A stretch of DNA of 48,915 bases from the NCBI GenBank assembly GCA_017463815.1, contig JAFTOK010000072.1, positions 1 through 48,915 of the forward strand. The letters run 5' to 3'. The translations under genes and the position numbers were made by a program. Origin of the DNA: Clostridia bacterium. GTDB taxonomy: Bacteria; Bacillota; Clostridia; Oscillospirales; CAG-272. The notes beneath the pieces were generated by a model. It saw only the letters and a program-made list of their open reading frames with translations, made no database searches and had not been told where the DNA came from. This document shows, in pieces, positions 4,552-37,273 of the stretch (the stretch's first letter is position 1; every line of letters starts with the position of its first letter).

Positions 4552-6000
4552 TCACGCCCTCCCCTCTGTGCGCACGGCGTTCTTGCCCGAAACAGCGGGC
4601 GGCACCTTTTTCATCTTCCAAATGGGCGACATATACAGGAAATCGCGAAGCCCCTCTGCCGAAAGTGGCGCAAACGGCGAAAAATACGGCACGCCAAAGG
4701 AGCTTTTGGCGGCACCGAACACGAGTGCGGCGGCAAGCACGGAGAAAAAGCCGAATATACCGAAAATACCACCCGCCAAAATAAGAACAAAGCGAAGAAT
4801 AGAATTGGGGTTCATATAAGGCGCACATATAAAATTACAAACGGCGGAGAACGCCACGATTATGAGCACAAATGGTGAAATTATGCCCGCGCTCACGGCA
4901 CTTTCACCTAGAATCAGCGAGCCGACCACGCCCACGGCGCTGCCCACAGCCTTCGGCATACGCAAGCCAACCTCGCGCAGAATTTCAAAGATTAAAAACG
5001 CAGTTATAATCTCCCAAGTGAGCGAAACCGTCATATCCTTGCGCGTTTCGGCGAGAAAATCGACCATTTCCTGCGGCAGAAAACCCATATGGTGTGCGGC
5101 GAGCGCCAGAAAAAGCCCCGGCAAAAATACGCCGAGCAAAACCGCCGCAAAGCGGAGCAAGCGCACGAACGTGGCGTAAAACGTATCTTTCGCATAATCT
5201 TCCGAAACCTGAAAGCCCTCACAGAAAAGGTACGGCACCGTCAGCACCACGGGCGAACCGTCTACGATAACGGCAATGCGCCCCTCCAATATCTTCGCCG
5301 CCACCTTGTCGGGGCGTTCGGAGTTGCCCACGGTGGGATAGAGCGCGTGCCCGCCGTCCTGAATATACATCTCTACACTGCCCGAATCTATAAGAGCGTT
5401 CGCGCGTATTGCGGCAAGGCGCTCTTTCAGCAAAGCCAGCGCGCGCTTATTCACAAGGTCGGAAATATACATAATTATCACGTCTGTTTTTGTAAGCGTG
5501 CCGAGCGTGATTTTTTCGCTTTTCAGCTTTTCACTCTTGATTCTGCGGCGCAAAAGAGTTGCGCTTTGCTGTGCGCTTTCGTTAAAACCATCGTGTGGGC
5601 CACGCACCACGTTTTCCGTTTCGGGCTCGGTGTTCGCTCTGCCCTCGTCGTTTTTCGTGGCGCAGATATAGCCGAAAATCCCCTCCGGCATATCTGCAAA
5701 AAGCAAAAGCGCGTTGCCTTCCAAAACGGCGTTTTTCGCCGCATCATAGCCAAGCGCGGCAGAAAAGCCCCCGCCCGTTACTATGCTTCCCAAACAAGCG
5801 TCCGCTCCGCCGCGAAGATACGCCGCAGAAATCGGTTCCAGCACAAATTTATTCAATAAATCTTTGGAACAATGCCCTATTATATATAATATATAGAAGG
5901 TTTGCCCGCCAAAAGCAAGCTCCCGTACCAAAAAATCGCTCATACCCGCAAACTCACCGCAAAGGTTGCCCTTTAAATCGGCAAATTTTCGTTCTTCCAA
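4552..6000 (-). CDS. Spore germination protein, GerA/GerKA family (A subunit of germinant receptor)
   Basis: 482 aa with a soluble N-terminal domain plus a C-terminal membrane domain. Sequence is typical of the GerA family (LLRRRIKS, IAVIVDGSPVVLTVP). TTG start preceded by GGGGGA. Confidence 0.85.
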   Translation of the reverse strand: MEERKFADLKGNLCGEFAGMSDFLVRELAFGGQTFYILYIIGHCSKDLLNKFVLEPISAAYLRGGADACLGSIVTGGGFSAALGYDAAKNAVLEGNALLLFADMPEGIFGYICATKNDEGRANTEPETENVVRGPHDGFNESAQQSATLLRRRIKSEKLKSEKITLGTLTKTDVIIMYISDLVNKRALALLKERLAAIRANALIDSGSVEMYIQDGGHALYPTVGNSERPDKVAAKILEGRIAVIVDGSPVVLTVPYLFCEGFQVSEDYAKDTFYATFVRLLRFAAVLLGVFLPGLFLALAAHHMGFLPQEMVDFLAETRKDMTVSLTWEIITAFLIFEILREVGLRMPKAVGSAVGVVGSLILGESAVSAGIISPFVLIIVAFSAVCNFICAPYMNPNSILRFVLILAGGIFGIFGFFSVLAAALVFGAAKSSFGVPYFSPFAPLSAEGLRDFLYMSPIWKMKKVPPAVSGKNAVRTEGRA

Positions 6001-6091
6001 AATACAAATCCCCCATTCTTTTAAAACGTTCCGTTTCTATTATTCGCCGCAAAAAAATTTTTATTCTTTTATGATTTTTTTCAAAAAACTA

Positions 6092-6120
6092 TTGAAATTT
6101 GTAATTCACCGTGGTATAAT
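6092..6120 (+). promoter_or_regulatory. Sigma-A-like promoter for rplS
   Basis: TTGAAA-17 nt-TATAAT. Leaves a ~90 nt 5-prime UTR before rplS. Confidence 0.5.
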
Positions 6121-6210
6121 ACTCACGTTGTATATTAAAAACACAAACGAGGCGGTCCGCTGCAATGCTCGCAAGAACGCTTCGGCACTACATTTATGGA
6201 GGAAACCAAA

Positions 6211-6555
6211 ATGGATAACAAAATCACAGCTTTTGTTAACGAGCAGCTTAAAACAGAAGTACCCCAGTTCGAAATCGGTGACACAGTTGAAGTTCAGAAC
6301 AGAATCAAAGAAGGTTCCAGAGAAAGAATTCAGCTCTTCACAGGTCTTGTAATCGCTAAGAAGAACGGCGGTATTTCCGAAACATTCACAGTAAGAAAAG
6401 TATCTTACGGTGTAGGCGTTGAAAAAACTTTCCCGATTCACAGCCCCAACGTTGTAGCAGTTAAAGTTACACGTAAAGGTAAAGTTCGCCGCGCTAAACT
6501 CTACTATGTTCGCGACAAAATCGGTAAAGACGCTCAGGTTAAAGAACTTATCTAA
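6211..6555 (+). CDS. rplS: 50S ribosomal protein L19
   Basis: GDTVEVQNRIKEGSRERIQLFTGLVIAKKNGG and KVRRAKLYYVR are hallmark L19 sequences. GGAGG lies 7 nt upstream of this ATG; the track starts 15 nt earlier. Confidence 0.95.
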   Translation: MDNKITAFVNEQLKTEVPQFEIGDTVEVQNRIKEGSRERIQLFTGLVIAKKNGGISETFTVRKVSYGVGVEKTFPIHSPNVVAVKVTRKGKVRRAKLYYVRDKIGKDAQVKELI

Positions 6556-6573
6556 GCTAACAAAACAAGTAAA

Positions 6574-6605
6574 ACAGGCTCCTTTATGGAGTCTGTTTTG
6601 CTTTG
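6574..6605 (+). terminator. Intrinsic terminator after rplS
   Basis: Stem ACAGGCTCC/GGAGTCTGT followed by a T-run. Confidence 0.6.
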
Positions 6606-6681
6606 TTAACGCAAAAAGTTTTGCAAAAAACTTTTTAGGAACAAAAACGTTCGGAAAGCCGCAGGCTTTCCTGCCATATCG

Positions 6682-6710
6682 AAAAGGAGGCGTAACACCT
6701 CCTTTTCTCT
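6682..6710. terminator. Bidirectional hairpin terminator (serves the minus-strand sleC operon)
   Basis: Stem AAAAGGAGG/CCTCCTTTT with a 7 nt loop. Confidence 0.55.
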
Positions 6711-6714
6711 ATCA

Positions 6715-7236
6715 TCAAGAGCTGTAATGAGAATTGTTATAATACGCGTTAAAGCTCTTCGCCGCCGCATCCCACGTGCGTTTATCCAACACACCTGTTT
6801 GCGGCAAACCGTTGTATCCCTGGAAACGCTTGAGCGCTTCCCTCGTTGCCTCGTCGTTTTCGCCGCTGATTACAATATCTTCAAAATCGTCGTATACCAC
6901 GGCAAGCGCGGAAAGTATGAGTTGAATCAGCACGATAATGTCGCTGCGCTCGCCGCTTTGCGAGGTGTAAGAGGGCGAGGGGAAAGGGTAAATCGGCTCT
7001 GCTTGCGAGGTCATATAGATGCTTTCCTTGTATCTTGCAAAAATCGCATCCCAAGTTTGCTTGTTTACCTCGCCGCTCGGCGCAATTCCGTTTTGCGCTT
7101 GAAAAGCCCGCACGGCATCGCGAGTATCCTCGCCATAAATTCCGTCGGGGTTTATAAGTGGGATTTCGCCCGTGATTTGCGCAATTTTACGAAGCATATA
7201 TTGAAGCTCGTAGACTTCTTTTGAAGGCTCTGCCAT
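6715..7236 (-). CDS. Peptidoglycan-binding (PG_binding_1) tandem-domain protein
   Basis: Two copies of the DGIYGxxTxxAVxxFQ...GxxxxxTW motif. RBS AAAGGAGAAG. 15 nt downstream of the SleC-like gene. Confidence 0.7.
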   Translation of the reverse strand: MAEPSKEVYELQYMLRKIAQITGEIPLINPDGIYGEDTRDAVRAFQAQNGIAPSGEVNKQTWDAIFARYKESIYMTSQAEPIYPFPSPSYTSQSGERSDIIVLIQLILSALAVVYDDFEDIVISGENDEATREALKRFQGYNGLPQTGVLDKRTWDAAAKSFNAYYNNSHYSS

Positions 7237-20255: not shown

Positions 20256-21509
20256 TTATCCCTTAAAATCTGCTATTATCTTCTCCGCGAGCGCCTCTGC
20301 CGTGCCGTCGTTCTTAGTGTGCACGTCGCACGTGCCCGTGTAGATGGGGTATCTTTCCTCATAACGCTTCTTAAGCATTTCCCTGTCGGAGGAAAGCGGG
20401 CGGTCGCTCGTGGGCACAATATCTTCTATATCACGGTCTATAAAGTAAATTTTGCCGTTGCCGCGCAGAGCGAGCACGTTTTCCTGCCTTAGCACAGCGC
20501 CGCCGCCCGTGGAAATAACGTTGCCGACGGTGTCGTGGCAAAGTTCCGCTATAACCGCGCTTTCGGCGTCGCGGAAAGCCGCCTCTCCGTGTTCTCTTAT
20601 ATAATCGGCAGGTGTGCCGTATTTTTTCGTAAATTCTTCGTCCGTGTCGTAGAACGCTCTGCCGAGCTTTTCGGCGATAAGCGCACCTACCGTGCTTTTT
20701 CCGCACCCGGGCATACCCGTAAGCACGATATTCTGCTTCGCAAGGAACAAATCTTTAAAAATCTGCTCTGTAACTTCGTCTGCCACGGGCTCGCCCGTGA
20801 AAAGCTCTGCTGCCGCCGTAGCCTGCGCCACGAGCATATAAAGCCCGTTTACCGCGGGAATACCCATAAGCTGTGCTTCGTTTGCGAGTTTTGTGCGCAA
20901 GGGGTTGTACACTACGTCCACAACGCCTTTAAGGCTCTTAAAACTTGCAAGGCTTACCGCCGAGCCGTCGAAAGGTGTTGTTTCCGTGTGCGGGTACATA
21001 CCGCAGGGGGATGTGTTGATAATGTATTCCGCATCTTTATAGTCGCGCGCCGCATCGTCGTAGGAAATAACGATTTCGTGCGCCTTCTGTTCTACAAATT
21101 TGATACATTTTGCGCCCAAATCCTCGCAAACGGCGTGCGCTGTTCTGCTCGTGCCGCCGTAGCCGAGTATAAGCACGGTTTTGCCGCTCAAATCAAATCC
21201 TGCGCGCAAAATAAGACTGCGCAATCCCACAAAGTCTGTGTTATAGCCGTGGAGTTTGCCGTTTTCGTTAATCGCCACGTTTACAGCGCCTATTTTTTCC
21301 GCCTGCTCGCTTATAGTAGCGAGATAAGGTATAATATCGCGCTTGTAAGGAATGGTGATGTTTATTGCCGTAAAATCGCGTTTTTCCGCAAAATCGGCAA
21401 AATCTTCTTTTTCAACCTCTATAAGTTCATATGTGTATCTGCCGAGTTTTTCGTGTATTTCCTTGGAAAAGCTGTGCGGCAATTTTTCGCCTAAAAGTCC
21501 GTATCTCAT
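20256..21509 (-). CDS. aroE: Bifunctional shikimate dehydrogenase / shikimate kinase (AroE-AroK fusion)
   Basis: N-terminal half is AroE-like (YGLLGEKLPHSFS, NTDFVG, GYGGTSR). C-terminal half has the P-loop GMPGCGKSTVG and the shikimate-kinase DTDEEF motif. Start set to the ATG giving MRYGLLG. Confidence 0.85.
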   Translation of the reverse strand: MRYGLLGEKLPHSFSKEIHEKLGRYTYELIEVEKEDFADFAEKRDFTAINITIPYKRDIIPYLATISEQAEKIGAVNVAINENGKLHGYNTDFVGLRSLILRAGFDLSGKTVLILGYGGTSRTAHAVCEDLGAKCIKFVEQKAHEIVISYDDAARDYKDAEYIINTSPCGMYPHTETTPFDGSAVSLASFKSLKGVVDVVYNPLRTKLANEAQLMGIPAVNGLYMLVAQATAAAELFTGEPVADEVTEQIFKDLFLAKQNIVLTGMPGCGKSTVGALIAEKLGRAFYDTDEEFTKKYGTPADYIREHGEAAFRDAESAVIAELCHDTVGNVISTGGGAVLRQENVLALRGNGKIYFIDRDIEDIVPTSDRPLSSDREMLKKRYEERYPIYTGTCDVHTKNDGTAEALAEKIIADFKG

Positions 21510-21543
21510 TTTAAATATCCTCATTGATATAAATTTTACCAAA

Positions 21544-21659
21544 AATCGCCAAAGCGATTTTCTTCCTTAACCCGCCGCAGGCGGATTTCACCGACGCCCC
21601 GCGTTGATTTCATATTGCGAAGCAATATTTCACATTTTGCGTCACGCAAAATATTTCAC
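21544..21659. repeat. Tandem array of 5 short GC hairpins, each followed by ATTTCA(C/T) (~21 nt period)
   Basis: AATCGC/GCGATT, CCGCC/GGCGG+ATTTCAC, CGACGC/GCGTTG+ATTTCAT, ATTGC/GCAAT+ATTTCAC, TTTTGCG/CGCAAAA+ATTTCAC. Confidence 0.5.
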
Positions 21660-21667
21660 CGTGCAGA

Positions 21668-22759
21668 TTACCCGAGGTAATCTGTACCGTATCTTCCCGC
21701 CAGCATATCGCAAATGGCGATTGCCGCAAGACTGTCCACCACTATTCTCGCGCGGTGGGCAATGCACGGGTCGTGTCTGCCCTCTATTGAAATGTCTTTT
21801 TCTATGTTTTCTACAAAATCTATCGTTTCCTGTTTTTTGTAAATAGACGGTGTGGGTTTTATAACCGTTGTGAAGCACACGGGGTTTCCGTTGGTAATGC
21901 CGCCGTTCACGCCGCCGTTGTTGTTCGTTTTCGTATAGACTTTGCCGTCTGCGCCCATACGGAAAGCGTCGTTTGCCTCGCTCCCGCGCATTTTCACAAA
22001 ATCCGCTCCCGCGCCGAAGAGCACGCCTTTTACACCCGGCACGGAGAACATCATATGGGCTATAACGCTCTCGAACGAGTCAAAATAAGGTTCGCCCACG
22101 CCCGCAGGCATACCTATTATAACCGTTTCGAGCATACCGCCCACGCTGTCGCCCTCTGCCGCCGCTTTCTCTATTTCCGCGCGCATTTTTTCTTCCGCTT
22201 CAGCGGAAAGCACGGGGAAAACCTTTCCGTAGAGGTCGTCTATATCCGCTTTCAGGTCACCGAACGCTCTGTCGGGAACGCCCGCAAGCTCCTTTATGTG
22301 CGTGCCGAGGTAAATTCCCTTCTTCGCAAGCGCCGCGCGCGCAATGGCACCCGCCGCAACGAGCGCGCTTGTGACTCTGCCCGAAAAGTGGCCGCCTCCG
22401 CGGTAGTCTTCAAAGCCGTGGTATTTGCAGTATGCCGCAAAATCCGCGTGACCGGGGCGCGCCAAGCCGTACGTCTTTTTATAATCCTTGCTTCTCGTGT
22501 CTGCGTTGGGTATGATGATTGCTATGGGCGTGCCCGTTGTCTTGCCCTCGAAAACGCCGCTCGCTATGGTGTATTCGTCCTTTTCCTGCCTTGCCGTGGA
22601 AATTCTTCCTGCGGGGCGGCGGAGTGTGAGCGCGTGGCGAATTTCTTCTTCGTCAACCTCTATGCCGGGGGCAATGCCGTCCAGCACTGCACCTATGAAC
22701 GGGCCGTGGCTTTCGCCGAAAACGGTGAGGCACACGCTCGTACCGAATGTGTTTTTCAT
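21668..22759 (-). CDS. aroC: Chorismate synthase
   Basis: FGESHG, RPGHAD and GRHDPC motifs. Confidence 0.95.
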   Translation of the reverse strand: MKNTFGTSVCLTVFGESHGPFIGAVLDGIAPGIEVDEEEIRHALTLRRPAGRISTARQEKDEYTIASGVFEGKTTGTPIAIIIPNADTRSKDYKKTYGLARPGHADFAAYCKYHGFEDYRGGGHFSGRVTSALVAAGAIARAALAKKGIYLGTHIKELAGVPDRAFGDLKADIDDLYGKVFPVLSAEAEEKMRAEIEKAAAEGDSVGGMLETVIIGMPAGVGEPYFDSFESVIAHMMFSVPGVKGVLFGAGADFVKMRGSEANDAFRMGADGKVYTKTNNNGGVNGGITNGNPVCFTTVIKPTPSIYKKQETIDFVENIEKDISIEGRHDPCIAHRARIVVDSLAAIAICDMLAGRYGTDYLG

Positions 22760-26790: not shown

Positions 26791-27177
26791 ATGAAAAAAG
26801 AACTTGTGAGCCTGCCGGACGCCGAATTTGAAGTGATGAGCGCCTTGTGGCATTGTAACGCCGAATTTGTGCCCACCACGGAAATTTTAGCGCAGATGAA
26901 AACCGAAAAGAAAGCGCAGACGGTTCTCACAATGCTCACGCGCCTTGCGGATAAGGGCTTCCTTTCCTCCCGCAAAAACGGCAAGGAAAGGCTTTGGAAA
27001 GCCGAAGTGAGCGAGGAAGAATACCGTTCTTCCGAGGCAAAAAGAATCGTAGAAAAAGTCTACGGCGGCTCTTTCGTGGGCCTTATCAGCGCATTTTACG
27101 ATGGCAAGGGTCTTTCCGAGGCCGATGCAGAGGAGCTTATAAGCTGGCTCGACAAAGAAAAAGGAAAGAACGGGTAA
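26791..27177 (+). CDS. BlaI/MecI/CopY-family winged-helix transcriptional repressor
   Basis: LPDAEFEVMSALW...TVLTMLTRLADKGFLSSRKNGKE is a typical Penicillinase_R fold sequence. AGGAG lies 8 nt upstream of this ATG. Confidence 0.85.
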   Translation: MKKELVSLPDAEFEVMSALWHCNAEFVPTTEILAQMKTEKKAQTVLTMLTRLADKGFLSSRKNGKERLWKAEVSEEEYRSSEAKRIVEKVYGGSFVGLISAFYDGKGLSEADAEELISWLDKEKGKNG

Positions 27178-27181
27178 TGCT

Positions 27182-28729
27182 ATGGAAATGGCGATTACAC
27201 AGCTCATTTTCGCAAGTATAACCGCAGTTTTGTTCATTTTGGCAAACTGCGCCGCGAGAAAGCGCGTGTCTGCGTGTGTGCGGTATGCCGTAGGTGTGGT
27301 TTTGGTGGCGGTGTTTATGCTGCCCGTAAGATTCCCACTTATGCGCATAAACATTCAGGCAGAAACGGCAGAAACCGCTTATTTCGAGCAAACTCCCGCA
27401 GGGAGCACGCAGGCGGGCATAGAAACGCCTGCTTTGCCGAATGCGGTGCCGCCCGAAAACTCGCCCTATGTGCCTTACGCGGAAAACCTTATTGTTGCAA
27501 TCTACGTATCAGGGGTGATTATCTCGCTTTTTTGCATCTTTTTCCGCTACTGCAGAGCGGCAAAAGCCTTGCAACGGTGCGGACGCGCACCCACGGAGCA
27601 AGAAAAACGCCTTTTGCTCGAGATTTGCGCAGAACAAGGTGTTTCCCGTGCGCCGCGGATGCTCGTTTGCCCGCAAAACGCCATCGGTTCTTCCCTGATG
27701 TTTGGATTCAGGCGGCAGACCGTTCTTATATCGGATAATATGGAGGAAGGGGCGCTGCGGCTTATTTTAGGGCACGAAATAACGCACTGCAAGCGGAAAG
27801 ATTCCGTTTTCAAGGCATTTCTTGCCCTGCTCGGCTCGCTTTATTGGTTCAACCCAATAATTCACCTCTTTATACGCACGATGAACAGCCTTTGCGAAGA
27901 ATCCTGCGATGAAAAATTCCTTAGCGGCAGCAGCTACGAAAGAAAACTGCAATATTGCCGCCTGCTTATCGGCACCGCTGCCGCTAAAAGCAAAAACAAA
28001 ACAATTTTTACTACTTTTAAAGGAGGCAGTAAAACTATGAAAAGACGACTTGAAAATATACTGAATAAAAAAAGCAAAATTGTAGCAGCCGTTCTCGTGG
28101 TTTCCGTACTTCTTGTAACAATGCTCACATCCGCAATCTATTTCACGCTCCCGCCAAACAACGTAAAGGTGGCATACCTTGATGAGTGGGATAAGGTTTG
28201 GTCTTCTTTGGGCGAAAACGACACTGTAAAAAGCGACTATGATGTGGAATATCAATATTCCGTGAATTCCGATGAAATTACGGTTACGGGTATTGTAAAC
28301 GGAAAGTCGTTTGACGTTACGGGCAAGCTCGTTTCCCGCAATCACAACGGAGCAAAGCTTTTCTACGATTTTTCCCCCGATAAAAAGGGAAATTACAATG
28401 TAAAACACCTTAGCGTTCAGCTTGCACAACACACGGAAATCGAAGCACCCGCGGACCACAACCCCGAACACGGGAGCTGGAATCATTCGCTTAAAGCTTT
28501 TTTCAGCGATTTTGCAAAAAACAACCCAAAATATAAAAATATGCTTGCGCTCTACCTCAATCCTATCGGCACAGATGATATTTTGGTAATAGAAATTTTC
28601 TTGGAAGAAGATTTTCTTACAGCGTACAGCGCACAAAACGAAGTACCTTATACCGAAGAAGGAAGCAAACATCTTAATTGGTTTGTTTATTGGTATGAAG
28701 AAAACGGTGCTTTTGATTTAGATGAGTGA
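27182..28729 (+). CDS. BlaR1/MecR1-like M56 zinc-metalloprotease signal transducer with a non-PBP extracytoplasmic C-terminal domain
   Basis: HEITHCKRKD (HExxH) plus the WFNP motif of Peptidase_M56. Multiple TM segments. The C-terminal ~200 aa has no SxxK/KTG penicillin-binding motifs. Confidence 0.8.
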   Translation: MEMAITQLIFASITAVLFILANCAARKRVSACVRYAVGVVLVAVFMLPVRFPLMRINIQAETAETAYFEQTPAGSTQAGIETPALPNAVPPENSPYVPYAENLIVAIYVSGVIISLFCIFFRYCRAAKALQRCGRAPTEQEKRLLLEICAEQGVSRAPRMLVCPQNAIGSSLMFGFRRQTVLISDNMEEGALRLILGHEITHCKRKDSVFKAFLALLGSLYWFNPIIHLFIRTMNSLCEESCDEKFLSGSSYERKLQYCRLLIGTAAAKSKNKTIFTTFKGGSKTMKRRLENILNKKSKIVAAVLVVSVLLVTMLTSAIYFTLPPNNVKVAYLDEWDKVWSSLGENDTVKSDYDVEYQYSVNSDEITVTGIVNGKSFDVTGKLVSRNHNGAKLFYDFSPDKKGNYNVKHLSVQLAQHTEIEAPADHNPEHGSWNHSLKAFFSDFAKNNPKYKNMLALYLNPIGTDDILVIEIFLEEDFLTAYSAQNEVPYTEEGSKHLNWFVYWYEENGAFDLDE

Positions 28730-31825: not shown

Positions 31826-32518
31826 TTATACTTTGGCTTTTGCTTCCGCTATAGCGTGGTTTATGCTTTCGCAAAGGCTATCTACCGTGGCGTTGTACTT
31901 TACGGGGATACGCGCGGCTTCCTTTCCGCCCTCGGAAATAACGAAAAACCAGATTTTCGTGTTGTTTTTCTCGTCGAAAACGCGTTCTTCGCAAACGGTG
32001 GAAACGCCGTCCATATCCTCGAAAGCAAACTGCATTTCGGTTTCATCCTTGCCGTCTTCTATAAGCGAAAAGGTTTTTTGGGAAATGTATACGCCGTCAT
32101 TCGTAAAAAGAAGCGCGGCAACGGTATATTTGCTGGAACGGTACTTTCTGTCCGTTCTGCCGCGGCGCACGATTACGCCCTCGCCATCGTACACGAAATT
32201 GCCGAGAAGAGCGGGTTTTATCCTGCGGGAAAGCGTTATGTGTACGCTTTCGAGCGTTTCCTCGTCATATTTTTGCGTGGCACGCAGCACGGCTTCGTCT
32301 ATCTCGCCTTCGCTCGCCCGCCCGGAGGACGGCGCAAAAGCCACCACGGCGCCCACGAGCGCCACACCAAAGCAAAGCGGCGTCTGCATAGGCATAAAAT
32401 CGAAGCCCAATATATTGGTTATGGCAAAGAACACCGCCGCCACACCAATTATTATAACGCCCACGTAAAAATGCCTGTCGTTGCTGTTGTAATATTTAAG
32501 GTTTCTTTTGTAATCCAT
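31826..32518 (-). CDS. Membrane protein of unknown function (2 N-terminal TM helices plus soluble domain)
   Basis: ORF with coding-like composition. Hydrophobic segments VGVIIIGVAAVFFAI and LCFGVALVGAVVAFA. No family recognised. Confidence 0.5.
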   Translation of the reverse strand: MDYKRNLKYYNSNDRHFYVGVIIIGVAAVFFAITNILGFDFMPMQTPLCFGVALVGAVVAFAPSSGRASEGEIDEAVLRATQKYDEETLESVHITLSRRIKPALLGNFVYDGEGVIVRRGRTDRKYRSSKYTVAALLFTNDGVYISQKTFSLIEDGKDETEMQFAFEDMDGVSTVCEERVFDEKNNTKIWFFVISEGGKEAARIPVKYNATVDSLCESINHAIAEAKAKV

Positions 32519-32698: not shown

Positions 32699-32727
32699 TT
32701 GATATTCTTGCTATTGTATGATATAAT
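32699..32727 (+). promoter_or_regulatory. Sigma-A promoter (extended -10) of the SCIFF operon
   Basis: TTGATA-17 nt-TATAAT with TG at -15/-14. ~30 nt upstream of the SCIFF ATG. Confidence 0.6.
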
Positions 32728-32757
32728 GTGTGTAATAATTCCTATGGAGGTGCTATT

Positions 32758-32904
32758 ATGGAACACATCAAAACAGTTGAAACAAAAAACCTTTGCGAAA
32801 GCGCTAAAAACGGCGGCTGTGGCGAATGCCAGACATCTTGCCAGTCCGCTTGCAAAACAAGCTGCGGTATTGCTAACCAGCAGTGCGAAAGCAAAAACAA
32901 ATAA
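32758..32904 (+). CDS. SCIFF (six-cysteines-in-forty-five) ranthipeptide/RiPP precursor, 48 aa
   Basis: MEHIKTVETKNLCESAKNGGCGECQTSCQSACKTSCGIANQQCESKNK. GGAGG 7 nt upstream. Exact family core GGCGECQTSCQSACKTSC. Not in the ORF track because it is under 60 aa. Confidence 0.9.
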   Translation: MEHIKTVETKNLCESAKNGGCGECQTSCQSACKTSCGIANQQCESKNK

Positions 32905-32923
32905 TCAAATTTAAAAATGCCCA

Positions 32924-32952
32924 CCGAACAGGGGGCATTTTTAAGTATATAA
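32924..32952 (+). terminator. Weak hairpin plus T-run between precursor and maturase (probable partial terminator)
   Basis: ATGCCC-N10-GGGCAT followed by TTTTT. Confidence 0.45.
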
Positions 32953-32979
32953 ATATAAATTCGGGAAAGGAACCTTGAA

Positions 32980-34356
32980 ATGATACATCAGTATAAACTC
33001 GGCGGCTACAACGTAGTCCTCGACATATGCTCGGGTTCGGTGCACGTGGTAGACGACGTCGCCTACGACATAATTGAGCTTTTTGAAGCACACACGCGCG
33101 AGGAAGTTATAAAAACCGTCGGGGAAAAATACATAAACGGCGCAGACATCACTGCGGCGGATATAGAAGAATGTTACGCGCAGGTAGAAGCTCTGCGCGA
33201 CGCGGGCAAGCTCTTCTCGCCCGACACGTTCGAGCCTATGGCGGGCAAGCTCAAAGAAAAAACGGCAGGCGTTGTCAAAGCGCTCTGCCTGCACATAGCA
33301 CACACCTGCAACCTCAACTGCTCCTACTGCTTTGCAAGCCAGGGCAAATACCACGGCGACAGAGCCGTGATGAGCTTCGAGGTGGGTAAGCGCGCGCTTG
33401 ATTTCCTCGTAGAAAACTCGGGCACACGCCACAATCTGGAGGTTGACTTCTTCGGCGGCGAACCGCTTATGAACTTCGACGTTGTAAAGCAGCTCGTGGC
33501 ATACGCCAGAAGCATAGAAAAAGAGCATAACAAAAACTTCCGCTTCACGCTCACGACGAACGGCGTGCTTATTGACGATGACGTTATAGATTTTGCCAAC
33601 CGCGAGATGAGCAACGTCGTGCTCAGCCTCGACGGCAGAAAAGAAATCCACGACCGCTTCAGAGTGGACTACGCGGGCAAGGGCAGTTTCGACAAAATCG
33701 TGCCCAAATTCCAGAAGCTTGTGGAAGCGCGCGGCGGCAAAGACTACTATATGCGCGGCACATTCACGCACGCAAACCCCGATTTTCTCGAGGATATCAA
33801 AACGATGCTCGACCTCGGCTTTACGGAGCTGAGTATGGAACCCGTTGTCTGCGCCCCCGGCGACCCCGCGGAGCTTACAGACGAGGATATGGAAATAGTT
33901 AAAGACCAATACGAAAAGCTCGCAGAGCTTATGTTGGAGCGCCACCGCGAGGGCAGACCCTTCACCTTCTACCACTATATGATAGACCTTACGGGCGGCC
34001 CGTGCATATACAAGCGCATTTCGGGATGCGGCTCGGGCACGGAATATATGGCTGTTACCCCTTGGGGCGACCTTTACCCCTGCCACCAGTTCGTAGGCGA
34101 CGAAAAATTCAAGCTCGGCAACATTTACGAAGGCGTTACGAACACGGAAAAACAGGGCGAATTTGCCGCTTGTAACGTATACGCGCGCCCCGAATGCCGC
34201 GATTGCTGGGCAAGGCTCTATTGCTCGGGCGGCTGCGCGGCGAACGCATACCATTCCACGGGCGCTGTTACGGGCGTTTACAAAAAGGGTTGCGAACTCT
34301 TCAAAAAACGTATGGAATGCGCTATAATGCTCGCTATTGCGAAGCAATTTGAATAA
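32980..34356 (+). CDS. Radical SAM/SPASM-domain SCIFF peptide maturase (thioether-forming, CteB/Tte1186 type)
   Basis: CNLNCSYC radical-SAM cluster motif. C-terminal Cys-rich SPASM region (GPCIYKRISGCGSG, CRDCWARLYCSGGC). Adjacent to the SCIFF precursor. Confidence 0.9.
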   Translation: MIHQYKLGGYNVVLDICSGSVHVVDDVAYDIIELFEAHTREEVIKTVGEKYINGADITAADIEECYAQVEALRDAGKLFSPDTFEPMAGKLKEKTAGVVKALCLHIAHTCNLNCSYCFASQGKYHGDRAVMSFEVGKRALDFLVENSGTRHNLEVDFFGGEPLMNFDVVKQLVAYARSIEKEHNKNFRFTLTTNGVLIDDDVIDFANREMSNVVLSLDGRKEIHDRFRVDYAGKGSFDKIVPKFQKLVEARGGKDYYMRGTFTHANPDFLEDIKTMLDLGFTELSMEPVVCAPGDPAELTDEDMEIVKDQYEKLAELMLERHREGRPFTFYHYMIDLTGGPCIYKRISGCGSGTEYMAVTPWGDLYPCHQFVGDEKFKLGNIYEGVTNTEKQGEFAACNVYARPECRDCWARLYCSGGCAANAYHSTGAVTGVYKKGCELFKKRMECAIMLAIAKQFE

Positions 34357-34358
34357 GA

Positions 34359-35687
34359 ATGAACACTCCGATTTGTGAGTTTTTGGAAAATTATGTGCAA
34401 AAAGGCGCGACGCGCCTGCATATGCCGGGGCACAAAGGTATAGGTGAAACGGAAAAATACGACCTTACGGAAATAGACGGCGCAGACAGCCTGTATGAAG
34501 CGAGCGGAATTATCGCGCAAAGCGAAAAAAACGCGGGCGGGCTTTTCGGAGCGCACACGTTCTATTCCGCAGAGGGCTCTTCCCTCGCCATTCGCGCGAT
34601 GCTCTACCTCGCCACGCTACACGCCGCAAGCCGCGGCGAAAAAGCGCGTGTGCTCGCAGGGCGCAACGCCCACAAGACGTTTGTGAGCGCCGTGGCGCTG
34701 CTCGGCACAGAGGTGGAATGGCTCACGGGCGGCGGCTCGTACCTTTCCTGCCGCGTGACGGCGGAAACCGTGCGCGAATATTTTGAGAACGCCCAAAGCC
34801 TTCCCACGGCGGTGTACCTTACCTCGCCCGATTACCTCGGTAATATGGCGGATATCGCGGGCGTGGCGCGGGTTTGCCGCGAAAACGGCGTACTTTTGCT
34901 CGTGGATAACGCACACGGCGCATACCTTAAGTTTTTGCCCGAGTCTATGCACCCCATAGACCTCGGTGCGCATATGTGTTGCGATTCCGCGCACAAAACT
35001 CTGCCCGCGCTCACGGGTTGTGCATACTTGCACGTGGCAAAAGACGCGCCGCAGATGCTTTCCGAAAACGCAAAAAACGCGCTCGCGCTTTTCGGCTCCA
35101 CAAGCCCCTCTTACCTTTTGCTCGCCTCGCTCGACGCGGCGAACAAGTACCTCGCGGAAAATTATCGCGAAAAACTTGCCGCGTTCGTGGGGCGGCTGGA
35201 ACTGCTCAAAAAAGAACTGCGCGCGCACGGCTACGCCTTTTCGGGAAACGAGCCGCTGAAGCTCACGTTCAACACGAAAGCCTACGGCTACCTCGGCGCG
35301 GAGATGGCGGAATATCTTACAGGGCAGAACTTCGTGCCCGAATTTTACGACCCCGATTTCCTTGTGCTTATGTTCACACCCGAAATAAGCGAGGGGGAAA
35401 TGGCAAGGCTTCGCAAGGTGCTGCTCGCTCTGCCGAAGCGCACGGAAATTTTCGTTTTCCCGCCGCGCCTCTCGCTCCCCGAGCGTGCTATGCACCCGCG
35501 CGAGGCGGTGCTTTCAGCCTGCGAAAAGCTACCCGTGGAAAAATGCGTGGGCAAAACGCTCGCCGCCGTCACGGTAGGCTGTCCGCCCGCCGTGCCTATA
35601 GCGGTTTCTGGCGAGGTTATAGACGAAAGCACGGTAAAATGCTTTAAATATTACGGCATTTCACATTGTAACGTAGTAAAAGAATAG
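34359..35687 (+). CDS. Orn/Lys/Arg decarboxylase-family (fold type I PLP) enzyme
   Basis: HMPGHKG, YSAEGSS and CDSAHKTLPALT (PLP-lysine) motifs of OKR_DC_1. Starts 2 nt after the maturase stop. Confidence 0.75.
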   Translation: MNTPICEFLENYVQKGATRLHMPGHKGIGETEKYDLTEIDGADSLYEASGIIAQSEKNAGGLFGAHTFYSAEGSSLAIRAMLYLATLHAASRGEKARVLAGRNAHKTFVSAVALLGTEVEWLTGGGSYLSCRVTAETVREYFENAQSLPTAVYLTSPDYLGNMADIAGVARVCRENGVLLLVDNAHGAYLKFLPESMHPIDLGAHMCCDSAHKTLPALTGCAYLHVAKDAPQMLSENAKNALALFGSTSPSYLLLASLDAANKYLAENYREKLAAFVGRLELLKKELRAHGYAFSGNEPLKLTFNTKAYGYLGAEMAEYLTGQNFVPEFYDPDFLVLMFTPEISEGEMARLRKVLLALPKRTEIFVFPPRLSLPERAMHPREAVLSACEKLPVEKCVGKTLAAVTVGCPPAVPIAVSGEVIDESTVKCFKYYGISHCNVVKE

Positions 35688-35695
35688 CTTTATAC

Positions 35696-35731
35696 AAAAA
35701 CATCGTTGTGTCGATACACAACGATGTTTTC
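35696..35731. terminator. Bidirectional intrinsic terminator
   Basis: 11 bp stem CATCGTTGTGT/ACACAACGATG flanked by an A-run and a T-run. Confidence 0.7.
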
Positions 35732-35734
35732 TTT

Positions 35735-37093
35735 TTATCTGTTTGCCATAGGTTCATAGGGAACGTCTTCTTTTACACTTATGTAAGCGGGGCGAATTAT
35801 TTTGCCCGCGTTCTGAATTTCTTCTATACGGTGCGCGCTCCAGCCGGCTATGCGAGCTATGGCGAAAATCGGCGTGAAAAGCTCATACGGCAAGCCGAGC
35901 ATCTTGTAGACCATACCCGAATAAAAATCCACGTTGGCACTGACGCCTTTGTAAATTTTGCGTTTTTCCCCGATTATCTGCGGTGCGAGCTTCTCCACGG
36001 TTTCGTAAAGCTCAAATTCTTCTTCCATACCCTTTTCCACGGAAAGCGCTTTTGCAAAGGAGCGCAATATATCCGCGCGCGGGTCGGAAACGGAATATAC
36101 CGCGTGGCCCATACCGTATATAAGCCCCGCGCGGTCGAACGCTTCCCTATCCAGCAGTTTTGCGAGATATTCCGCTATTTCTTCCTTGTTCTTCGTGTTT
36201 ATGCTCGCTTTCATATCGTCGAACATCTGCATAACCTTTATATTCGCGCCGCCGTGGCGGGGGCCCTTGAGCGAGCCGAGCGAGGCGGAAACGGCAGAGT
36301 ACGTGTCCGTACCCGAGGAGGTTACGACGTGCATAGCGAACGAGGAGTTGTTGCCGCCGCCGTGCTCTGCGTGGAGCACGAGCGCGAGGTCCAAAAGTTT
36401 GGCTTCAAGCGGCGTGTATTCGCCGTTTTCGCGCAGTATATAGAGCAGGTTTTCCGCCGTGGAAAGCCCCTGCTTGGGGTAATGTATAAAAAGGCTCTGC
36501 CCGTTGTGGTAATGCTGGTAAGATTGATATCCGTACACGGCGAGCAACGGAAACTGTGCTATAAGCGCTATGCACTGGCGCAGCACGTTTGCCGTGGAAA
36601 TATCGTCGGGGTTATCGTCGTAGGCGTAGAGCGCCAGCACGCTACGGGAAAGAATGTTCATCATATCCTTGCCGGGCGCTTTCAAAATCATATCGCGCAC
36701 GAAAGAGGGCGGCAGAGTGCGGTATTCCGCAAGCAACGCGCTGAAATCCGCAAGCTCGCGCTCGTTGGGAAGCTTTGAAAAAAGCAAAAGATACACGGTT
36801 TCCTCAAAGCCTTGGCGGTTATCGGCGACAAAGCCGCGCACAAGGTCGCGAACGTTTATGCCGCGGTAGTAAAGCCTGCCGTCGCAGGGGCGTGTGAGCC
36901 CTTCTTCGTTCTTTTCCTTTGATATTATTGTAGAAATTTCCGTAAGCCCCGCCACGACACCCGTGCCGTCTATATCGCGCAAGCCGCGTTTTACGTTGTT
37001 TTCCGCATACATCTGCGGCACGATATTGTTGTTGATATCGGAAAGCGCGGCGAGCTTCTGTATATATGGGGTAATTTCCGAATAATTTGTCAT
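35735..37093 (-). CDS. Citrate synthase
   Basis: GHAVY and DFYSG-type motifs (MGHAVYSVSDPRA, NVDFYSGMVY). Start set to the ATG giving MTNYSEI; the track ORF starts 13 codons earlier. Confidence 0.85.
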   Translation of the reverse strand: MTNYSEITPYIQKLAALSDINNNIVPQMYAENNVKRGLRDIDGTGVVAGLTEISTIISKEKNEEGLTRPCDGRLYYRGINVRDLVRGFVADNRQGFEETVYLLLFSKLPNERELADFSALLAEYRTLPPSFVRDMILKAPGKDMMNILSRSVLALYAYDDNPDDISTANVLRQCIALIAQFPLLAVYGYQSYQHYHNGQSLFIHYPKQGLSTAENLLYILRENGEYTPLEAKLLDLALVLHAEHGGGNNSSFAMHVVTSSGTDTYSAVSASLGSLKGPRHGGANIKVMQMFDDMKASINTKNKEEIAEYLAKLLDREAFDRAGLIYGMGHAVYSVSDPRADILRSFAKALSVEKGMEEEFELYETVEKLAPQIIGEKRKIYKGVSANVDFYSGMVYKMLGLPYELFTPIFAIARIAGWSAHRIEEIQNAGKIIRPAYISVKEDVPYEPMANR

Positions 37094-37273
37094 CTTTTCT
37101 CTATTTCCTTCCTGATTTGGGTATTTACGCATTTACTACGTATATTTTACCATATTTGCGGTTAAATTGCAGTAAATAATCTTTAAAAATTCTGTAAATT
37201 TATTGTCGAAAAGCTAAAATTCGGCGCTATTTTCGCCGTTTTCGGGTATTTTATTTTTCTTCGCCAAAAACTA

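Follow-up and report, generated by a model that had tools for sequence, protein, structure and literature searches.

Among the closest described relatives of the system analysed here are the SCIFF ranthipeptide CteA (thermocellin) with its maturase CteB, from Acetivibrio (Clostridium) thermocellus, and Tte1186a with Tte1186, from Caldanaerobacter subterraneus, the first SCIFF to be characterised in vitro. SCIFF precursors are recognised by six cysteines in a peptide of about 45-50 amino acids (aa), and a location no more than about 500 bp from the gene for ScfB, a radical S-adenosylmethionine (SAM) enzyme, has served as a further criterion (PMC5300114). A single thioether arising from Cys32 was reported for Tte1186a (PMC8326336). 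The review passages dealing with the position of the cross-link (PMC8326336, PMC8172795) give a Cys32-Thr37 thioether from in vitro work, and a Cys32-Thr34 link with an S-C-gamma bond when CteA and CteB were co-expressed in E. coli (Hudson 2019, cited there). In this work we analysed a stretch of 48,915 nucleotides (nt) from a Clostridia bacterium (contig JAFTOK010000072.1; hereafter the window), in which a sequence-only reading had proposed a SCIFF precursor gene and its maturase gene. Our results indicate, with a probability of about 0.93, that we are dealing with a canonical SCIFF ranthipeptide operon, scfA-scfB, on the core chromosome of an uncultured, spore-forming, Oscillospirales-type gut Clostridia bacterium, and that it works by the mechanism proposed below. 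The features needed for this assignment are as follows.

32758-32904, + strand: scfA, 48-aa SCIFF ranthipeptide precursor (TIGR03973, PF13165), from ATG to TAA
32746-32750, + strand: Shine-Dalgarno sequence GGAGG, 7 nt 5' of the scfA ATG, by direct reading
32980-34356, + strand: scfB, 458-aa radical-SAM/SPASM SCIFF maturase (TIGR03974, homology to CteB)
32699-32914, + strand: overlapping 71-aa open reading frame (ORF) with a TTG start, in another frame, read as spurious

The 48-codon ORF with GGAGG 7 nt upstream had been correctly placed in the sequence-only reading, and its translation was exactly MEHIKTVETKNLCESAKNGGCGECQTSCQSACKTSCGIANQQCESKNK. The hidden Markov model (HMM) comparison suggested there was carried out, and ScfA scored 78.8 bits against TIGR03973 (cut-off 50, E = 2e-22) as well as 79.3 bits against PF13165, the Pfam SCIFF model (cut-off 27), with residues 3-44 spanning model positions 2-43, confirming the peptide as a SCIFF precursor. 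The count of six cysteines was wrong, because ScfA has seven (13, 21, 24, 28, 32, 36 and 43): the six canonical ones, which form the register C-x2-C-x3-C-x3-C-x3-C-x6-C at Cys21/24/28/32/36/43 of the 48-aa peptide, and an additional Cys13. The leader comprised about residues 1-20, including Cys13, and the core started at Cys21 and contained Thr34 and Gly37.

The scfB gene started 75 nt after the scfA stop on the same strand, within the distance described for the family. Its product scored 764.7 bits against TIGR03974 (cut-off 425, E = 3e-230) in the HMM comparison, in agreement with its proposed role as the SCIFF maturase. Matches above the Pfam cut-offs were obtained for Radical_SAM (PF04055, 59.3 bits), Fer4_12 (PF13353, 42.5 bits) and SPASM (PF13186, 26.4 bits with a cut-off of 21.5). 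The CX3CX2C motif, CNLNCSYC, was located at residues 110-117 (33307-33330), and nine cysteines (342, 350, 368, 406, 409, 415, 419, 438 and 447) aligned with those of CteB, the SPASM cysteines spanning residues 342-447 (34003-34320); reading of the ORF, Pfam and the CteB alignment together upheld the radical-SAM motif and the Cys-rich SPASM C-terminus that had been noticed in the 458-aa protein. The alignment of ScfB with CteB began at residue 1, and its N-terminal part contained conserved blocks, among them SG.VHVVDD; the Pfam PqqD match at residues 12-69 reached 17.6 bits, below its 23.4 cut-off.

The locus was compared with 80 species-level genome loci whose ScfB was 80-98% identical to that of the window (the clade sample) and with 80 distant SCIFF loci (L083-L162), 160 related loci altogether. 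Two metagenome contigs encoding a ScfB protein identical to the window's raised the number of close loci to 82. The peptide comparison covered 98 distinct SCIFF sequences, of which 62 came from the clade and the other 36 from distant loci with a ScfB 47-65% identical to the window's. All 80 clade loci belonged to metagenome-assembled genomes of uncultured Clostridia, Oscillospiraceae or Acutalibacteraceae, mostly from the ruminant gut, the nearest being RGIG3924 from roe-deer caecum (98% ScfB identity). The closest genome records were Clostridia and the window encodes SpoIVA and GerA, as expected of the proposed host.

In 76 of the 82 close loci, scfA was located in the 450 nt preceding scfB. 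In two further ones (L066 and L082) it was found about 1-1.3 kb upstream, with extra DNA between both genes, in three the contig was too short upstream of scfB to show it, and in one (L020) there was no scfA in the available 1.45 kb upstream of scfB. Among the distant loci, scfA preceded scfB in 65 of 80. Residues 19-41 of ScfA were invariant across the 62 distinct clade peptides, and GGAGG was found no more than 16 nt from the start in 60 of 76 relatives.

Two other explanations of these genes were considered, and both seem extremely improbable to us. The 71-aa TTG-start ORF might be the real gene and the SCIFF-like frame a coincidence, or, as a variant, a 58-aa extension might start at the GTG at 32728; both ORFs exist mechanically, and the 71-aa one is longer than scfA. 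However, the 71-aa frame was broken by stop codons in 37 of 76 relatives, its product had no match in Pfam or NCBIfam, and the relatives all shared an M-[EK]-H-I-K start at the ATG preceded by GGAGG. Pairwise differences among 74 distinct DNA versions numbered 6197, 1778 and 47026 at the first, second and third codon positions of the 48-aa frame, and this excess at the third position implies purifying selection on that frame. Moreover, the 71-aa ORF begins at the -35 hexamer of the promoter described below and the GTG follows the -10 box (32722-32727) immediately. Transcription would thus probably begin downstream of the 71-aa start, and at the 58-aa start or just past it. The 71-aa and 58-aa ORFs were rejected on the grounds of these stops, the codon-position pattern, the promoter overlap and the absence of family matches. 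From the nucleotide comparison, the 48-aa frame is judged to be under selection and the 71-aa ORF to be an artefact, which agrees with the earlier proposal that the latter masks scfA.

The second explanation takes the maturase for an orphan related to ScfB, or for a different thioether-forming or SPASM enzyme of the PapB, QhpD or CcpM type, with a substrate other than the peptide, whose adjacency would be due to chance. Related models did match ScfB, namely the exception model not_ScfB (NF040492) with 571.5 bits, PapB with 281 bits and QhpD with 263 bits, but all of them remained under their curated cut-offs (855, 340 and 453, respectively), as did the remaining maturase models, whereas TIGR03974 was far above its own; furthermore, scfA was present upstream of the maturase gene in nearly all loci with enough upstream sequence. 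A canonical scfA-scfB pair was consequently retained as the preferred reading.

The transcriptional signals of the locus and the gene that follows scfB, which encodes a pyridoxal 5'-phosphate (PLP)-dependent protein (the PLP gene), were localised as follows.

32699-32727, + strand: sigma-A-type promoter with extended -10 (TTGATA at 32699-32704, 17-nt spacer, TG at 32719-20, TATAAT at 32722-32727)
32909-32946, + strand: terminator-like hairpin between scfA and scfB (GC core at 32916-32939, U-tract of five U from 32940)
34359-35687, + strand: PLP-dependent gene of the short, aspartate aminotransferase (AAT)-fold Orn/Lys/Arg decarboxylase family (SpeA/YaaO family), 442 aa (PF01276, PF03711)
35697-35730, strand not assigned: operon-end terminator from the terminator scan, a perfect 15-bp hairpin and T-run separating the stop of the PLP gene (35687) from that of citrate synthase (35735)

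The extended -10 promoter TTGATA-17-TATAAT, already recognised in the sequence-only reading, showed an 11/12 match and outscored all other sites in the 3.6 kb that were scanned. When relatives were scored on the 12 positions of both hexamers, with the TG counting a further half point, 64 of 73 reached at least 10, against 3 of 73 shuffled controls. Of the 71 relatives with a score of 9.5 or more, 70 had the TG extension, the spacer was 17 nt in all the relatives listed, and the end of the -10 was mostly 29-36 nt upstream of the scfA ATG, so that the position of the promoter was conserved as well.

The hairpin between scfA and scfB had a free energy of -24.5 kcal/mol (z = -4.8), and none of 200 shuffled sequences folded as well. 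A hairpin with a T-tail was found in all 73 distinct scfA-scfB intergenic regions of the clade and in all 41 distant-clade ones, with differing stem sequences, and in only 2 of 74 control stretches of the same length inside scfB. The promoter scan detected no promoter-like site on the + strand between the hairpin and scfB. We infer that the hairpin may act as a leaky terminator or attenuator and also as a 3' stabiliser of the scfA transcript. According to this proposal, transcription would start about 30 nt upstream of scfA and most transcripts would end at the hairpin, giving an abundant, stable and short scfA mRNA, while a minority of read-through would allow the expression of scfB and the PLP gene. 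Since the 34 nt that separate the hairpin from scfB contained no promoter, the read-through fraction would set a high substrate-to-enzyme ratio. The universal precursor-hairpin-maturase order suggests that the levels of precursor and enzyme are set transcriptionally.

A promoter-like TTCAAA-17-TATAAT sequence (10/12) was also detected inside the 3'-end of scfB (34300-34328, + strand), 31 nt before the PLP gene; as a separate promoter for that gene it was discarded as probably due to chance, given that only 2 of 79 relatives scored as high. At the end of the operon, a convergent citrate synthase gene (35735-37132, - strand; Citrate_synt Pfam tag) faces the PLP gene. The sequence 3' of the stem at 35697-35730 was T-rich on the + strand, and this terminator probably serves both convergent genes, that is, it would be bidirectional.

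By analogy with CteB and Tte1186 (PMC8326336, PMC8172795), a predicted domain at the N-terminus of ScfB, resembling a RiPP recognition element (RRE), would bind the ScfA leader. Cleavage of SAM at the [4Fe-4S] cluster held by the CX3CX2C motif would then generate a 5'-deoxyadenosyl radical able to abstract a side-chain hydrogen, and the two SPASM auxiliary clusters would assist the joining of a Cys sulfur to a non-alpha carbon. As to the acceptor, Thr34 was invariant in all 98 distinct SCIFF peptides, and position 37 was occupied by Gly in the 62 clade peptides and by Thr in the 36 distant ones. The window ScfA accordingly has no Thr37 acceptor, a residue that is not a formal criterion of the family; Gly37-Ile38 (codons 32866-32871) replace Thr37-Val38 throughout the clade. 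Cys13 (codon 32794-32796) was invariant in the clade leader, a position mostly taken by Lys or Gln in other clades. The presence of Gly37 across the clade together with an invariant Thr34 implies that Thr37 cannot be the universal acceptor, and for the window ScfA we predict a Cys32-Thr34 link, from the Cys32 sulfur to the Thr34 C-gamma, as in CteA made in E. coli. A clade having a highly conserved ScfB and no Thr37 therefore informs the discrepancy between the in vitro (Cys32-Thr37) and in vivo (Cys32-Thr34) assignments.

For the mature product, a regulatory or signalling function is considered most likely, rather than an antibiotic one. In the accounts of Chen et al. 2020 given by the reviews PMC8102284 and PMC8326336, knock-outs in C. 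beijerinckii and C. ljungdahlii point to a regulatory or quorum-sensing role, the C. beijerinckii ones having lowered the expression of sporulation genes and raised that of agr (PMC8102284). The view in the sequence-only reading that the physiological role of these loci is still unknown was thus true only in part. In addition, the near-universal distribution of SCIFF in Clostridia speaks against an antimicrobial role (PMC8326336).

Several points weigh against the operon working in the way proposed here. The signalling role hangs on a single knock-out study, as the reviews describe it, made in distant Clostridium species, and neither a protease nor an exporter is encoded in the scfA-scfB-PLP operon. 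The leakiness of the terminator is deduced from a short U-tract and the lack of a second promoter. Even in the case of CteA, published work disagrees on where the cross-link lies and, in a peptide lacking Thr37 and bearing an extra Cys13, the number and positions of the links could differ from those of the characterised SCIFFs. Finally, expression of scfA and scfB, as well as the ScfA thioether in the host organism, are predictions made from the genes.

The product of the PLP gene matched PF01276 (OKR_DC_1, the major domain) with 110.4 bits and PF03711 (the C-terminal domain) with 24.5 bits, had no REC domain, and carried the SxHK motif as SAHK, with the lysine at residue 213 (codon 34995-34997). 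No NCBIfam equivalog matched this protein, and its best solved relative was the uncharacterised S. aureus 2X3L (E = 8e-31). A homologue search gave only matches from the same clade, at least 58% identical and with generic names. Firmicutes carry two ancestral-form AAT-fold paralogues: SpeA, involved in polyamine synthesis, and YaaO, which is encoded upstream of tmk and influences the 5-aminopentanolylation of elongation factor P (EF-P) (PMC8503589). The position immediately upstream of tmk that marks YaaO was not found here; the PLP gene precedes the terminator and the convergent citrate synthase gene, and no downstream gene was conserved in the 80 relatives.

The PLP gene started 2 nt after the scfB stop, and no internal promoter for it was conserved among the relatives. 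Among the clade relatives, all 71 that offered full room and three of the four that offered partial room had a homologue directly 3' of scfB, mostly within 3-30 nt; on the 2.7-kb contig of L042, the 1.2 kb following scfB lacked a PLP gene. All other flanking genes differed among clade relatives. Candidates for further conserved neighbours were sought in the 80 relatives and none was kept, since the large ORF clusters that remained were shadow ORFs contained in scfB or in the PLP gene. Judged from gene order, spacing and the lack of a promoter, the PLP gene is co-operonic with scfAB. Among the distant loci it followed scfB in just one of 69 (L146), by which its candidacy as a universal SCIFF partner was rejected. 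In L146, a short AAT-fold decarboxylase gene (5440-6765, + strand) follows a scfB whose product is 50% identical to the window's, and the peptide has Thr37; the decarboxylase showed 29% identity to the window's PLP protein and a closer match to S. aureus 2X3L (143 bits). This association could be independent or ancient.

The constancy of this neighbour raises the question of whether the PLP protein is a dedicated third part of a clade-specific SCIFF pathway, either as a tailoring enzyme acting on ScfA or as a supplier or user of a metabolite tied to the function of the peptide. The 2-nt gap, the missing promoter and the adjacency in 71 of 71 species-level relatives, when the other flanks vary, are in its favour, together with the coincidence of the PLP gene with the clade changes Cys13 and Gly37-Ile38, the divergent relative after scfB in the unrelated locus L146, and the implication of the YaaO paralogue in a protein post-translational modification (PMC8503589). 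On the other hand, scfB had no adjacent PLP gene in 68 of 69 distant loci, which indicates that the gene is dispensable for SCIFF maturation in general, and the PLP protein evolves much faster than ScfA and ScfB (median identity 56% vs 82%). SCIFF loci elsewhere sit among unrelated housekeeping genes such as yajC and secDF, so that co-transcription with a housekeeping enzyme has precedent. To our knowledge, no PLP-dependent decarboxylase tailors a RiPP, and this counts against a tailoring role.

We consequently regard a dedicated role of the PLP protein as unlikely, although not negligibly so. Slightly less likely still is a distinct three-gene system in the clade, made up of a ScfA with Cys13 and Gly37, ScfB and the PLP enzyme, with a cross-link topology unlike that of any characterised SCIFF, in which Cys13 might perhaps be involved, and with the PLP enzyme taking part in maturation or in the same physiological pathway. 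If true, such a system would offer a first biochemical handle on the purpose of SCIFF peptides. The canonical scfA-scfB operon, co-transcribed with a PLP gene, remains our preferred reading.

In distant clades the gene order was tgt - yajC - (DUF3792) - scfA - scfB - secDF - recJ, and secDF was immediately 3' of scfB in 50 of the 80 distant loci, examples of this housekeeping cluster being the following.

L135, 5364-7733
L087, 1767-2249
L144, 873-2015
L100, 5991-8450

A full-text literature search returned no open paper naming both SCIFF and secD. The location of SCIFF genes inside housekeeping operons, either flanked by yajC and secDF, as in many Clostridia, or before the PLP gene, as in the window's clade, fits a physiological rather than an antibiotic role, and these settings suggest concrete partners for SCIFF function.

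The window also contains, among others, truB, rbfA, gerA, genes for an amino-acid ATP-binding cassette transporter, a Mur ligase and NAD synthase, an aromatic amino-acid biosynthesis operon, a blaI/blaR-like pair, and the pyruvate kinase, citrate synthase and spoIVA genes. No other radical-SAM or RiPP gene was found among the window genes examined; the description of the SCIFF locus as the clearest RiPP system in the window therefore stands, if trivially. Divergent from the locus, positions 31826-32518 (- strand) encode a predicted membrane protein of 230 aa with no Pfam or NCBIfam match, whose homologues occurred only on the two contigs with identical ScfB; because they were missing from the 80 relatives, this gene was placed outside the SCIFF module. 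The BlaI/BlaR-like pair (26791-28729, + strand) consists of a Penicillinase_R repressor and a Peptidase_M56 sensor, according to the Pfam tags of L001, the contig that matches the window. An Rfam scan revealed no RNA family within or near the SCIFF locus. It did place a Gut-1 RNA (RF01706; 51.9 bits, gathering score 50) at 21580-21661 (- strand), inside the aromatic amino-acid operon, between the genes for chorismate synthase (21668-22759, - strand) and a shikimate dehydrogenase/kinase fusion (20256-21542, - strand). Gut-1 has no known function, and its placement before an aro gene may be a clue to it.

SCIFF and ScfB are among the most widespread and best-modelled RiPP families and are named automatically by the NCBI pipeline. 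The exact ScfA peptide of the window, its ScfB and the third protein were all present in public collections (NCBI, ENA), ScfA also in NCBI nr. The 90% cluster of ScfA had 2,141 members, the named ones being called 'six-cysteine ranthipeptide SCIFF', and the named members of the ScfB cluster 'thioether cross-link-forming SCIFF peptide maturase'. The sequence-only reading had called scfA hidden; it was indeed absent from a list of ORFs of at least 60 aa, but ordinary gene callers do call it in public assemblies, and on identical metagenome contigs the 48-aa gene was called and tagged PF13165. The SCIFF system of the window is thus already known and routinely annotated, and only lineage-specific details are fresh. 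Gly37 with an invariant Thr34, the extra Cys13 and the obligatory PLP-gene partner of the clade are modest leads, and the natural variation around the cross-link acceptor, the universal hairpin and the housekeeping setting are of some value to workers on ranthipeptides.

Among the characterised enzymes, ScfB resembles the crystallised CteB (PDB 5WGG/5WHY), which matched its residues 1-451 with 54% identity (E = 7e-165); the CX3CX2C motif and every SPASM cysteine are conserved in both, all cluster-binding cysteines being kept, as anticipated when the maturase was first described as of the CteB type. Their substrates share an identical core, GGCGECQTSCQSACKTSC, and the same Cys21/24/28/32/36/43 register, and the hairpin between the precursor and maturase genes is common to the CteA/CteB-like locus and the window. 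The window ScfA differs from CteA in having Gly37-Ile38 for Thr37-Val38 and Cys13 for Lys13, and, counted by eye, 30 of 46 positions were identical to the CteA-type peptide of L083. The context also differs, with the PLP gene after scfB in the window, and genes for an HD-domain protein, SecD and SecF in the CteB-like L083.

Tte1186a and Tte1186 belong to the same TIGR03973 and TIGR03974 families, and the acceptor Thr37 reported for the former is absent from the window ScfA. The SCIFFs of C. beijerinckii and C. ljungdahlii, organisms of a different order of Clostridia from the window host, are also of this family and are its only members with in vivo phenotypes, comprising transcriptome changes, lowered sporulation genes and raised agr (PMC8102284). 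PapB, which acts on PapA (freyrasin), and QhpD also belong to the radical-SAM/SPASM enzymes, make non-alpha thioethers (at C-beta or C-gamma) and are homologous to ScfB at the level of 263-281 bits, but their substrates are unlike that of ScfB, PapB working on Cys-X3-Asp repeats and QhpD on the QhpC protein (PMC8172795). Concerning the third gene, the YaaO/SpeA ancestral-form decarboxylases and S. aureus 2X3L have the same two Pfam domains as the PLP protein, the short form without REC and the SxHK lysine. The PLP protein is shorter (442 aa vs about 480-490 aa in YaaO/SpeA) and scored about 110 bits to 2X3L, and its gene is placed after scfB, whereas that of YaaO is placed before tmk.

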